From the IMG/VR virus record IMGVR_UViG_3300045988_061744, positions 107,235 through 171,234 of that record: DNA of 64,000 nt; one strand, written 5' to 3'. This DNA comes from a virus. This document shows, one piece after another, positions 61,029 through 64,000 of the stretch (position 1 is its first letter; each line of letters starts with the position of its first letter). The notes beneath the pieces were generated by a model. It was not told where the DNA came from. It searched no databases and saw only the letters and a program-made list of their open reading frames with translations. The position numbers and the translations under genes were made by a program.

Positions 61029-62849
61029 ATGGCAACTATCAAATCTATAAAGGTTGGAGAAACCGTATATGACTTAAAGGCTACCTATGATGGCTCTGGA
61101 AATGTTATAGATTAGACATATGCAAAATCTAGTGCCATTCCAACTAAAGTGTCTTAGTTATAGAATGATGAAAATTATTTAAAGGAACACTAGGATATAA
61201 GTGGTTTAGCTACTAAAACGGAGTTGAAAAGTAAGGTAGATAAAGAATTAGGAAAAGGACTTTCTGAAGCTAATTACACAGAAACTGAAAAACAGAAACT
61301 TAGTGGTATTGCAGATAATGCAAATAATTATGTACACCCAACTACTTCTGGAAATAAACACATACCTGCTGGAGGAGTACTTGGATAGATTTTAACCTTT
61401 TCTGAAGATGGGACTGCATAGTGGGCAGATACTAGTACTAAGTTAGAGGAACAATTTAATGCTCTTAATACTGCTTGGGAAGAATTACAAAAAGAACAAT
61501 AGAGTCTAAGCAAACAAGTCACAGAGTTAAGCAGTAACGTAGACTTATACTCTTATGGAGTAGAATGGGATATTACCGTATCTTCTCCTATCCTTACTAG
61601 AATAGGAAACCCACTATTACATAAATCCCTCCCTATTTAGTCCGCTTACAGAGGATGTGTAGCAAATAACGGTGTGGTAAATTACTATTTATATCCGGAC
61701 GATTGGGCTTACAAAGAAGATGGAAGTACTCCTTCTGTGCTCGATGGAACTGATGGAACTGTAAGAGTCCACACTCCTAAATTTTATGGTAAATCAGGCT
61801 CTAATGGAAATAAAAGATGGGTTAGAATTTCTCTAGTAAAGCTTGATGATTCATGGGTAGAAATACCAGAACTATTAATTGACGCATATAGAAATACCGT
61901 TGATAATACTGTGTCAGCAACCCCTAAAGCTGTGTCTGTGGTCAATACTACAGAAGCATTTAGAGGTGGTGGAAATAGAGCACAATTCGATGAGTATCTA
62001 ACTACTAAACTTGATACCAAAGATGCTTTTAGAAGCGATTTAGGAAAACCTAGAACTAATGTTTCTAGAGCTAATATGAGAACTTATGCTACAAATGCAG
62101 GTTCTGAATTATTATGCTATGAATATTATAAATGGATATTCTACTGGAACTATGTAATAGAATATGCTAACTTTAACTCCCAGGCTGCCTATAATGCCGA
62201 ACTTACTTCTGATGGTTATCGTCAAGGAGGACTTGGTCCTGGAGTTACAGACTGGAGTAACTCTGCTACAAGTTGGTCTGGATATAATGGAACTTATCCT
62301 ATTACTCCATGTGGTTATTGTAATGATATTGGTAACTTCACTGGAATCAAAGATTTAGTTATTCCAGAGTGTACTGCAACAAACGAAACAGATACAGTAG
62401 CGACTAAGACATTTAAAGTTCCAAGATGGAGAGGTTTTGATAATCCATTTGGAGATATTTGGACAAACCTAGATGGAGTAGTTATTCAAAGAACTGCGGC
62501 AAATGAAATCAGTAGTGTGTATACTACCACAAACAAGGAAGAGTTTACTGACGTAATTGGCAGCAAGACCATAGCAGGATACGAGGTAGCGCAAGATGGA
62601 TACATTAAAGAGTTTGACTTAGGAGAGACAGCAGAGATTATACCATCTTCTTGTACTGGAGCCTCAGCTACAACTTATATATGTGACTACCACTCTTGCA
62701 ATGCTACCTCTACAGAGCTTCGCACGCTGCTGGTGGGCGGCCACGCGGCTTATGGCGGCAGTGCGGGTCTCGGCTGTTTCTTTTCTGGCGATGGCGTCGG
62801 CGGTGCCGCTTCCTCTGTCGGGTTTAGGACTCTAAATAGAGTATCTTAA
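61029..62849 (+). CDS. tail fibre / receptor-binding protein; DGR target 1 with C-terminal variable region, amber-recoded
   Basis: 606-aa ORF with TAG read as Gln (the track shows only 61674..62849). The C-terminus ...ELRTLLVGGHAAYGGSAGLGCFFSGDGVGGAASSVGFRTLNRVS is encoded by VR1. Confidence 0.65.
62727..62822 (+). repeat. DGR variable region VR1
   Basis: Identical to the template repeat except at about 26 positions, every one of which is an adenine in the template repeat. Confidence 0.7.
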
Positions 62850-62851
62850 GA

Positions 62852-62890
62852 TAAAATATAGAAAATCGATTTAGATATAAATCGTAGGAT
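62852..62890. other. hairpin / palindrome between VR1 and the template repeat (candidate IMH-associated stem-loop)
   Basis: AAATCGATTTAGATATAAATCG gives stem CGATTTA/TAAATCG; AAATCGATTT is itself palindromic. Confidence 0.3.
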
Positions 62891-62925
62891 ATTACTTCTA
62901 AAAACCGTTGATTGGCAAAAAAGAA

Positions 62926-63021
62926 CTGCTAGTAGGCAGCAACGCGAATAATGGCAGCAATGCAGGTCTCAGCTATTTCAATTCTAACAATGACGTCAGC
63001 AATGCCAATTCCAATGTCGAG
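62926..63021 (+). repeat. DGR template repeat
   Basis: Non-coding copy (no start codon; preceded by TAA). A-rich version of VR1 and VR2 (30 A in about 93 nt). Confidence 0.7.
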
Positions 63022-63146
63022 TTATTATATATTTAGAACAATTTATTTTATTTTTTTAGTTTGCTAAGTAATATCCTTGCCTCTAGGCAAAAGACAACGT
63101 AGTGTTAAATGAAGGGTGTTAGTAGGTTAAATCTCGAAAGCTTCCG

Positions 63147-64000
63147 ATGAAATATATAAAAATTGAAACGTGTAGGATATTTGCACGAACGAGTGTATGA
63201 TTTGAAAAACATCGAATTAGCTGATGATAAGGCTAGAAGAAATAAATCAATTCGATGTGGTATTAAGTAGCATGATAAGAATAGATTAGAAGAAAATAAG
63301 GAATTATCAGACAAATTAAAATAGCTAATCTATTAGACTTCTGAATATAGTACATTTATAATATATGAGCCTAAAGAAAGATTAATCTTTAGACTTCCAT
63401 ATTACCCTGATAGAATCACTCATCATGCTATAATGAATATTATGGAACCTATCTGGACCAGTATTTTTATAGATTAGACATATTCCTCTATAAGAAACAG
63501 AGGGATTCATAAGGTAGAGTATGATTTATTCAAGGTATTGTAGAAATACTCAGATGAAACTAAATACTGCCTAAAAATGGATATAAGAAAATTTTATCCA
63601 TCTATAACACATGACATCCTGTATGAGATGTTGTAGAAGAAAATAAAGGATAAGAAACTGTTAAGTCTATTGAAGGAAATAATATATTCAGCCAAAGGAG
63701 TTCCTATTGGAAACTATCTATCATAGTTCTTTGCAAATTTATATCTGACATATTTTGACCACTGGATAAAAGAGGAGTTAAAATGTAAGTACTACTTTCG
63801 ATATGCTGACGATATTGTGATTCTTGGTAATGACAAGAATTATTTGAGAAATGTATTAGTATCTATAAAACTGTATTTGAAACAAGTTCTTAATTTAGAA
63901 TTAAAACCTAACTACTAGATATTTCCAGTAGAAAGTAGAGGAGTAGATTTTGTAGGTTACAAATTTTATCACACTCACGTTCTATTAAGAAAATCTATAA
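63147..64000 (+). CDS. DGR reverse transcriptase (partial, continues beyond window), amber-recoded; frame change needed near the start
   Basis: Frame-1 translation with TAG read as Gln: ...YEPKERLIFRLPYYPDRITHHAIMNIMEPIW...MDIRKFYPSI...GVPIGNYLSQFFANLYL...YYFRYADDIVILGN...SRGVDFVGYKF. This shows the RT motifs including YADD and resembles the Bordetella phage bRT N-terminus. ATG 63147 is in frame 0 and the RT body is in frame 1 from about 63160, across an A5 run. Confidence 0.7.

Follow-up and report, generated by a model that had tools for sequence, protein, structure and literature searches.

Evidence for one template repeat serving two targets in a diversity-generating retroelement of an amber-recoding gut crAss-like phage

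Introduction

A 64,000-nucleotide stretch of viral DNA (positions 107,235 to 171,234 of IMG/VR record IMGVR_UViG_3300045988_061744; hereafter the window) ends in a tail fibre gene, a non-coding near-copy of the end of that gene and a reverse transcriptase (RT) gene, which raises the question of whether these form a working diversity-generating retroelement (DGR) and which proteins it diversifies. The evidence makes it very probable that the locus is a DGR of a gut crAss-like phage of about 185-190 kb (zeta group), in whose plus-strand genes TAG is read as Gln, and that one template repeat (TR) serves two targets. Differences between assembled genomes, drawn from a comparison set of about 30 related phage contigs of 183-193 kb, evidently point to an element that is active.

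Results

The adenine-specific repeat pair and the reverse transcriptase

The cassette at the end of the window consists of the following features.

61029-62849, plus strand: target gene 1, a 606-aa tail (fibre) protein; open reading frame with 8 in-frame TAG (Gln) codons read through
62727-62824, plus strand: VR1, the variable repeat in target gene 1
62829-62842, plus strand: small hairpin ACTCT-AAAT-AGAGT of 5 bp, 4 nt 3' of VR1, read from the sequence
62926-63023, plus strand: TR, the non-coding template repeat, with 10 AAY codons in the VR frame
63073-63161, plus strand: structured RNA in the TR-RT spacer, with a hairpin at 63077-63090 and a two-helix domain at 63114-63145
63163-64000, plus strand: DGR reverse transcriptase, truncated at the window end after 279 codons; 8 in-frame TAG; matches RVT_1 (E 8e-19) and phrog_1423 (E 3e-101)

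VR1 and TR share a 98-nt core with 26 mismatches and lie 101 nt apart, essentially as the initial annotation had described them (93 nt, about 26 differing positions, about 100 bp downstream), and their offset of 199 nt is the one standout diagonal in ungapped alignment, with 95 matches against 63 for the runner-up. At every mismatch TR has A and VR1 has G, C or T, and with 30 A in the 98 nt of TR, the placement of 26/26 mismatches on TR adenines has a hypergeometric P of 7e-20. The annotation had let its claim turn on whether the differences are confined to the adenines of one copy; they are, and this speaks for a DGR.

The RT, previously assigned to the DGR type from its YADD and other motifs, carries GxxxSQ (IGNYLSQ, 63709-63726) and YADD (RYADD, 63802-63813), begins with TTG at 63163, a position at which its homologues start with ATG, and reaches a full length of about 424 aa in the relative L001. 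Its best PDB relative is the Bordetella phage bRT (8ub7, E 7e-45), far ahead of retron-type and group II intron RTs (E about 1e-15 or weaker), a comparison that places it in the DGR clade, and its nearest named relatives come from crAss-like phages. That the repeat is instead a product of chance or assembly, or that the RT belongs to another class (retron, group II intron or defence RT), has a practically negligible probability. The sole support for another class is the generic RVT_1 domain match, set against a bRT that is about 30 orders of magnitude closer than retron or group II RTs and against the lack of any defence-system match among the proteins around the second target described below, while an artefact is opposed by an adenine restriction of P about 1e-19 and by the same arrangement in more than 30 independent contigs.

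The reading of the locus as a complete DGR stands for VR, TR and a DGR-clade RT; it falls short in completeness, as the RT is cut by the window end and an Avd gene adjoining the cassette was not found. The TR-RT spacer is 139 nt long and contains no ORF, bearing out the earlier remark that it lacks an Avd ORF, and the search for Avd also covered the 132-aa ORF after the RT in L001, which gave no Pfam match even at an E cut-off of 1. Most zeta crAss-like DGRs are likewise described without Avd in the published account (PMC12386605), and the lack of an adjoining Avd gene therefore does not exclude membership of the DGRs. Avd, an accessory protein that forms a small four-helix bundle, is essential in the BPP-1 system, which counts against the locus, where it was not found.

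Stop-codon recoding and phage group

The gene calls of both the RT and target gene 1 depend on reading TAG as Gln. The RT TAG codons at 63724 and 63916 align with a Gln that is invariant in 23/24 homologues, the signature Q of GxxxSQ being itself a TAG codon, and the RT ORF is intact in all relatives when TAG is Gln; judged from such alignments, TAG is read as Gln in the plus-strand (packaging, structural) genes. ARAGORN predicts 28 tRNAs in the window, two of them with a CTA anticodon.

43081-43151, minus strand: suppressor tRNA, anticodon CTA
45551-45623, plus strand: second suppressor tRNA, anticodon CTA

A CTA suppressor tRNA would be needed for translating the RT and target gene 1.

Zeta crAss-like phages (proposed Echekviridae) have genomes of about 155-190 kb with two opposite gene blocks, many tRNAs, frequent amber or opal recoding and a TerL in the zeta clade. 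Zeta traits in the window are its divergent gene blocks, the TAG recoding of the plus-strand block and the 28 tRNAs, together with relatives of 183-193 kb; its TerL matches the generic phrog_6681 only, and megablast of positions 60000-64000 against an annotated phage collection gave no match. Zeta crAss-like genomes with DGRs are reported to be 182-189 kb long, with 24-27 tRNAs, a CTA suppressor tRNA and amber recoding (PMC12386605).

The tail fibre target and the 3' end of VR1

VR1 spans residues 567-599 of target gene 1 and is followed by 7 residues, in agreement with its earlier placement at the C-terminus of a 606-aa fibre, an ORF that exists only with the 8 TAG codons as sense. The protein matches phrog_5302 'tail protein' (E 3e-84) and has more than 6000 database relatives, 606 aa long in all among the matches listed; all homologues found are 97-98% identical. 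Pfam gives no domain save a spurious sub-threshold HALZ match, and a sequence search of the PDB gave no match. A C-type-lectin fold for the fibre C-terminus has been modelled for the zeta crAss-like phage group (PMC12386605), and VR1 is proposed as the putative C-terminal receptor-binding tip of the tail protein.

The palindrome or hairpin previously noted between VR and TR corresponds to the hairpin at 62829-62842 and a second palindrome at 62865-62884. The hairpin changes in close relatives in its loop only, with one compensatory double change (ACTTT/AAAGT) in L034-L036 and L038; compensatory changes in the palindrome were sought in the relatives and none were seen. Because BPP-1 has a stem-loop 3' of its IMH (PMC12875486), the hairpin is a candidate target-recognition stem-loop. 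The VR1 and VR2 copies end in GTCGGG and TR in GTCGAG (TR position 95 being G in 27/27 and 35/35), an IMH-like difference between the VR and TR ends that amounts to a single base.

A structured RNA between TR and the RT gene

Across 23 diverse DGR loci the covariation score of the spacer is 0.523, compared with 0.177 for shuffles (0/500 of which reached the observed value) and with at most 0.194 when pairing partners are slid. The window spacer scores 29.7 bits against the Rfam model RT-17 (RF03020), under the gathering threshold of 40.4 and so below Rfam's own membership criterion, because its inner helix is weak; in the relative L078 the corresponding RNA ahead of the RT gene scores 49.8 bits, above the threshold. 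Like RT-17 and RT-18, the spacer RNA lies directly upstream of the RT gene and presents a 5' hairpin, then A-rich sequence, then a GUURGUA-stem-GAA domain. It thus resembles a diverged relative of RT-17 that may work like RT-17 RNA. Weinberg et al. 2017 assigned only RT-10 to a DGR and speculated that DGR functions extend to other RT motifs (PMC5737381).

A second, remote and inverted target

The initial annotation correctly recognised the fibre VR1 as a target; absent from it was a second copy of the repeat, about 28 kb from TR and inverted relative to it.

34513-35073, minus strand: target gene 2, a 186-aa protein of phrog_11581; ORF without in-frame TAG
34633-34724, minus strand: VR2, second variable repeat; residues 117-147 of target 2 (a 31-residue internal segment)

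The core mismatches between VR2 and TR again fall on TR adenines (22/22, P 6e-15). VR2 is hypervariable among 38 relatives: L083 shows 16/98 differences inside VR2 and 5/463 outside it, and close relatives generally show 8-20 differences per 98 nt of VR2, where the remainder of the gene has 5-10 per 463 nt. Between near-identical genomes the differences fall almost only at TR-adenine positions, and the per-site spectrum resembles that of VR1. Complete genomes of relatives contain exactly three copies of the TR/VR pattern; a third VR was not found in the window, within 10 kb either side of the RT in relatives, or in whole genomes.

Judged from these sequence patterns, VR2 belongs to the same element as VR1, as a second, remote, inverted target of one DGR. 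A different account takes VR2 for a paralogous remnant, related to VR1 by descent from a past duplication or recombination, and leaves VR1 as the only repeat that the RT diversifies. It could draw on the distance of 28 kb, the inverted orientation and the outcome of a search for a convincing hairpin 3' of VR2 comparable to that of VR1, which found none, as well as on one genome (L004/L115) whose VR2 did not follow TR. It is nevertheless very unlikely, as near-identical genomes vary in VR2 almost only at TR-adenine sites with a per-site spectrum resembling that of VR1, genome-specific C-to-T variants of TR are present in VR2 of L101 and L105, and the family of target 2 also occurs as a local DGR target elsewhere: in other phages, proteins with the N-terminal domain and overall layout of target 2 are encoded next to TR and RT.

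As a second target of the DGR, target gene 2 lies between tRNA-Ser and tRNA-His genes, in a standard-code (non-recoded) block that also contains auxiliary genes and would be translatable before suppression. It matches phrog_11581 (E 1e-15), its family comprises 832 clusters at 90% identity, and the alignment combines a conserved framework with about 12 hypervariable residues. Sequence searches of Pfam, PADLOC and the PDB gave no match, and no Pfam domain was found in the neighbouring ORFs. The predicted model (pLDDT 90.7, usable from a diverse alignment only, a close-homologue alignment giving pLDDT 46) matches no solved fold, C-type lectins included. The ORF at 35184-35648 was considered as a full paralogue of target 2, a reading weakened by a match that is faint and confined to the N-terminal half (hhalign probability 73%, E 3e-5). 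Tentatively, and with odds clearly against it, target 2 may be a non-virion protein acting in or on the infected cell, e.g., by binding host defence or surface factors that vary, or by helping to exclude rival phages; in that case DGR diversification would extend to a non-structural phage protein whose scaffold is not a C-type lectin.

Activity and direction of information flow

TR is identical in 22/29 relatives, which are 82-99% identical overall, and is still recognisable at 73% identity, whereas VR1 differs in 29/29, at TR-adenine positions. In L001, which is 99.4% identical to the window over 10.8 kb, 17 of the 60 differences fall within the 98-nt VR1, an enrichment of differences in VR1 of about 40-fold, and genomes at this identity over 10.8 kb show 17-18 differences within VR1. 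The 2-nt deletion that frameshifts the VR1 consensus in L001 and L033 may be an indirect hint of heterogeneity within a population.

Variants of TR outside its adenines reveal the direction of transfer. C-to-T changes at TR positions 18, 30 and 45 occur in both VR1 and VR2 of the genomes L005/L101 and L008/L105, and a TR variant at position 93 is also present in VR1. Because such non-adenine variants recur in the VRs of the same genome while the adenine sites are scrambled, the comparison (comparative rather than experimental evidence) indicates one-way transfer of information from TR to both VRs. In the L004/L115 genome VR2 has an indel and has not taken up the TR variants, which suggests that VR2 can be lost as a target.

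The source of diversity consists of ten AAY codons and one TAT codon, which allow about 2e12 possible peptides, none interrupted by a stop codon. At nine other TR adenines almost all VR copies have G, which in most cases makes a scaffold glycine. G is near-fixed at three synonymous TR-adenine sites, which simple random A-to-N mutagenesis with protein-level selection does not explain.

Decay in some relatives, namely the VR1 deletion in L001 and L033 and the degraded VR2 of L115, together with the failure to find an Avd gene adjoining the cassette, would fit a relic of past mutagenic homing that no longer works in this phage. Such a relic is highly improbable in view of the 17-18 VR1 differences between genomes that are otherwise 99.4% identical over 10.8 kb, the RT ORF that remains open in all relatives with TAG as Gln, the strong conservation of TR and spacer RNA, and the presence of recent TR point variants already in both VRs. 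The DGR thus appears to be active.

Discussion

Comparison with known systems

The core cassette is ordinary for its phage group and a confirmed example of a published kind, because cassettes of the same layout, which lack Avd and whose RT genes contain amber codons, were published for zeta crAss-like phages in 2025 (PMC12386605). Shared features, as far as the available part of that account goes, are the order tail fibre-VR-TR-RT, no Avd found, and an RT that has GxxxSQ, is long (414 aa in the published case) and is encoded by a gene with amber codons. The same part describes one VR per cassette, with multiple TR/VR pairs only in Lera and ct1yV3, and does not mention a remote opposite-strand VR in a small non-fibre gene such as the one found here. 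The value added is this remote second target, which goes beyond the published description; the protein family of that target, and the coupling of hypermutation to recoding together with the spacer RNA, likewise extend what has been published.

The prototype BPP-1 element (mtd-VR, avd, TR, brt) has in common with the locus an adenine-specific TR-to-VR transfer, an RT of the same clade, an AAY-rich TR and a stem-loop 3' of VR. The locus departs from it in several respects: the search for Avd found none, all that is left of the IMH is a very short GC-rich end, and two genes are targeted, one of them remote and inverted. The RT of the locus, extended by about 95 residues at the C-terminus, depends for its translation on stop-codon suppression. 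In a known gut-phage two-target DGR one RT and TR likewise diversify two functionally different genes; both of its targets are reported to have C-type-lectin domains, whereas the target 2 model here matches no solved fold and target 2 is a stand-alone protein of 186 aa in a different gene block, 28 kb away.

Proposed mechanism and implications

In the proposed mechanism TR and the structured spacer RNA 3' of it would be transcribed, and the RT would copy the TR RNA into cDNA with misincorporation opposite adenines. The cDNA would then replace the homologous VR, the step for which the genome comparison argues, so that one TR would supply VR1 in the adjoining tail protein and VR2 in the 186-aa protein 28 kb off on the opposite strand. 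Since TAG codons occupy essential Gln positions of the RT, production of the enzyme would have to await the action of the amber-suppressor tRNAs; mutagenesis would probably be a late-infection event whose products are packaged and then tested in the next host. More speculatively, part of the role of Avd may fall to the spacer RNA, and perhaps also to the extra C-terminal residues of the RT.

For the biology of these phages, hypermutation would be coupled to stop-codon recoding, in that the RT needs amber suppression at residues of its catalytic motifs, and a covarying RNA stands where BPP-1 has its priming spacer; recoding and spacer RNA together make both the timing of mutagenesis and its independence of Avd experimentally testable. 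Members of the uncharacterised small-protein family phrog_11581, for which no fold could be recognised, are DGR targets in unrelated phage contigs as well, making the family a concrete candidate for structural and functional work. The survey of Roux et al. 2021 states that remote targets were not detectable, and because large metagenome surveys miss remote targets by design, more phage proteins, and more kinds of them, may be under programmed hypermutation than current counts suggest.

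The template and variable repeats

A single ungapped diagonal stands out when the region is compared with itself, lying at an offset of 199 nt with 95 matches versus 63 for the runner-up. It pairs a variable repeat (VR1) in a fibre gene (target 1) with a non-coding template repeat (TR) downstream:

61029-62849, plus strand: target 1, 606 aa with eight TAG codons, matching phrog_5302 ('tail protein', E 3e-84)
62727-62824, plus strand: VR1, 98-nt core pairing with TR
62926-63023, plus strand: TR, 98 nt, including 30 A

The two cores differ at 26 positions, most of them the first or second base of a VR-frame codon that reads AAY in the TR. 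The initial annotation had described the adenine-only mismatch signature of a diversity-generating retroelement (DGR), and it was correct in this, since all 26 differences are A in the TR and G, C or T in VR1, a restriction with a chance probability of ~7e-20 given 30 A among the 98 nt of the TR. In one related locus (L003), the 23 nt directly 3′ of the TR (63025-63047) are absent by deletion and the rest of the cassette is intact; the cassette can thus do without this segment, which places the TR end at ~63023-63024.

IMG/VR contains hundreds of relatives of the adjoining reverse transcriptase (RT). The 33 closest lie on contigs reaching 183-193 kb, and the VR1-TR region was alignable in 29 of these. 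The TR is the same as that of the window in 22 of the 29, and each of the 29 has a different VR1, the changes being essentially confined to TR-adenine positions. Comparison with L001, a contig 99.4% identical to the window, gives 60 differences over 10.8 kb, 17 of them inside the 98-nt VR1. Three related genomes (L004, L005 and L008) carry C-to-T variants at the non-adenine TR positions 18, 30, 45 and 93, all of which reappear in the VR1 of the same genome. As judged from these alignments, such shared variants are the signature of directional copying from TR to VR.

Several relatives have irregular repeats. VR1 of L001 (~9565-9660) and of L033, also 99.4% identical to the window, lacks 2 nt, which puts the fibre C-terminus out of frame. 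Either a mixed VR population collapsed into an artefactual consensus or a truly defective allele may be the cause. The TRs of L009 and L019, aligned to 62926-63023, show A-to-G or A-to-T changes in VR-resembling blocks, suggesting that gene conversion from VR to TR occurs occasionally or that the two repeats were assembled as chimeras. The 19-nt GC-rich insertion in VR1 of L027 (CTCGCCGTCGGCGTTCTCG, near window position 62750) seems to derive from part of the VR sequence duplicated internally.

A remote second target on the opposite strand

A search of the entire window using the TR's non-adenine positions located one additional copy of the pattern, VR2:

34633-34724, minus strand: VR2
34513-35073, minus strand: target 2, the ORF containing VR2, 186 aa, between tRNA-Ser and tRNA-His

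All 22 core mismatches of VR2 are at TR adenines (P 6e-15). Across 38 related contigs, VR2 is hypervariable at the same TR-adenine positions and the remainder of the gene is conserved; target 2 of L083 has differences at 16 of 98 positions within the VR versus 5 of 463 elsewhere. The encoded pattern is LVGGxAxxGGxAGLGxFxSxxGVGxAxSxVG, with an almost invariant surrounding frame. VR2 of L101 and L105 has the C-to-T variants of its own genome's TR at positions 18, 30 and 45. Targeting of VR2 can be lost, because VR2 of L115 (contig 058615; partner RT locus L004) is missing 3 nt, shows several mismatches at non-adenine positions and is without the C-to-T variants common to the TR and VR1 of the L004 genome; it resembles a second target no longer taking part in the homing cycle. 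When the viral collection was scanned with the TR pattern, adenines being replaced by N, complete genomes contained exactly three copies, an adjacent pair and a remote one on the opposite strand. No third VR was found near the RT in relatives.

The target 2 family is, on the comparative evidence, a recurrent class of DGR target, because related proteins have local adenine-specific TR/RT loci in other phage contigs. Small proteins with the target 2 N-terminal domain and the same overall layout lie directly upstream of a TR and RT in seven contigs (L146, L158, L180, L191, L194, L195 and L198). The RTs are 55-61% identical to that of the window, and the repeat mismatches are adenine-specific, e.g., 10/10, 16/17 and 14/15. 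L191 has two tandem copies near a head protease gene.

Target 2 shares the standard-code block with genes for an ATPase, lipoproteins and a NAD-salvage enzyme, and with tRNAs. The NAD-salvage auxiliary gene encodes nicotinamide phosphoribosyltransferase (5493-6728, minus strand; phrog_448, E 8e-138). Directly 3′ of target 2 (33002-34513, minus strand) are genes for small proteins that by eye seem to be secreted or in a membrane. The start of one of them overlaps the target 2 stop, and its product has hydrophobic segments and a signal peptide; the others are a lipoprotein-like protein of 76 aa and a membrane protein of 172 aa. Just upstream, a 154-aa ORF (35184-35648, minus strand) without a VR-like segment weakly resembles an alternative N-terminal type of the target 2 family (hhalign probability 73%, E 3e-5).

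Two classes of template adenine

Among 27 unique VR1 and 35 unique VR2 copies, all four bases are seen at 21 TR adenines, which lie in AAY and TAT codons. The other nine are G in 21-27 of 27 VR1 and 29-35 of 35 VR2 copies, with C or T hardly ever seen:

TR positions: 6, 9, 13, 31, 39, 46, 68, 73, 95
Window positions: 62931, 62934, 62938, 62956, 62964, 62971, 62993, 62998, 63020

The base 3′ of these adenines is G in eight cases and C in one. Amino-acid selection cannot explain the class, since three of the nine are synonymous third-codon positions. For bRT, the RT belonging to the DGR in Bordetella phage BPP-1, measurements recently showed that the base 3′ of the template adenine strongly affects misincorporation, with C misincorporation predominating and giving A-to-G in the coding strand (PMC12875486). 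This context effect would fit the two-class spectrum qualitatively, without accounting for near-fixation at synonymous sites. Context-dependent misincorporation, mismatch repair and a DNA-level requirement are possible causes.

Reverse transcriptase, spacer RNA and cis elements

The RT gene begins within the window:

63163 to beyond the window end, plus strand: RT (RVT_1, phrog_1423), starting at TTG, where homologues have ATG

The closest solved structure is the Bordetella phage DGR RT 8ub7 (E 7e-45, residues 42-329 aligned), with retron-type and group II intron RTs at 2e-15 or weaker in the PDB comparison, and the motifs IGNYLSQ and RYADD are present. The full-length RT in L001 (~424 aa) has a C-terminal extension of ~95 residues relative to bRT (L001 10990-11275, residues ~330-424), for which neither a bRT counterpart nor a Pfam match was found. 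Behind the RT gene come a 132-aa ORF, for which Pfam gave no match, and then large structural genes. No gene resembling that of the accessory protein Avd was found adjoining the cassette, including in L001, and the extension might compensate for the missing Avd.

The 139-nt TR-RT spacer encodes an RNA resembling Rfam RT-17, its 29.7 bits falling short of the 40.4 threshold, and at the equivalent place in a more distant DGR locus there is a bona fide RT-17 (49.8 bits). Over 23 diverse loci the covariation score is 0.523 versus 0.177 for shuffles (0 of 500 reached 0.523), slid controls score no higher than 0.194, and 9 of 12 pairs have both-side changes, supporting a predicted 5′ hairpin and two-helix domain. 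The authors who described the RT motifs in 2017 placed RT-10 alone in a DGR and speculated on DGR roles for others (PMC5737381), which the present clade supports.

A short hairpin follows VR1:

62829-62842, plus strand: 5-bp hairpin, 4 nt 3′ of VR1

Close relatives have loop-only changes in this hairpin, and the L034 group has one compensatory double change. All 62 VR copies end in GTCGGG, with GTCGAG as the TR counterpart, the sole candidate for an IMH/IMH* distinction. A second palindrome between VR1 and TR (62865-62884, ATCGATTT-AGAT-ATAAATCG region) has no compensatory changes among its differences in relatives; a fibre-gene terminator or the promoter region of the TR RNA are candidate roles.

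Genetic code and gene blocks

Under the standard code, TAG codons interrupt both the 'fibre' and the RT. Reading TAG as sense almost doubles total ORF length and yields long plus-strand ORFs such as terminase (15 TAG) and portal (35 TAG). The minus-strand block reaches ~44.7 kb, and its long ORFs (1-44.7 kb) contain no TAG. Two of the 28 tRNA genes in the window (14554-45623) have the anticodon CTA:

43081-43151, minus strand: suppressor tRNA, anticodon CTA
45551-45623, plus strand: suppressor tRNA, anticodon CTA

TAG is assigned to Gln because 23 of 24 homologous RTs have Gln where the RT of the window has TAG codons at 63724 and 63916, one supplying the signature Q of GxxxSQ and the other within NYQIFPV. 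Amber recoding is confined to the plus-strand packaging and structural block, from ~44.9 kb.

GC-skew and AT-skew change sign sharply within 42000-48000, with a cumulative minimum at 44-46 kb, where the gene blocks diverge. This minimum is a candidate replication origin, or gene orientation alone may account for it. By way of context, the coding strand of both targets is the G-rich strand, and they flank the GC-skew minimum on opposite sides. If the minimum is an origin, the strand to which the cDNA is complementary would at both target sites be the lagging-strand template.

Relation to known elements

The element is of a known kind, because zeta crAss-like cassettes and DGRs with two or with remote targets have already been described. 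In a 2025 description of zeta crAss-like phages (PMC12386605), DGRs have the order tail fibre-VR-TR-RT without Avd, and their RTs have amber codons and GxxxSQ. One group described there has amber-recoded genomes of 182-189 kb with 24-27 tRNAs and 414-aa RTs, and the window matches it. Phage DGRs with two targets are known (PMC10743442), as are remote targets, yet these have been missed in large surveys (PMC8144416). What this element adds is a second target, remote and inverted, within a small protein that is uncharacterised, together with the assignment of the spacer RNA and the two-class adenine spectrum.
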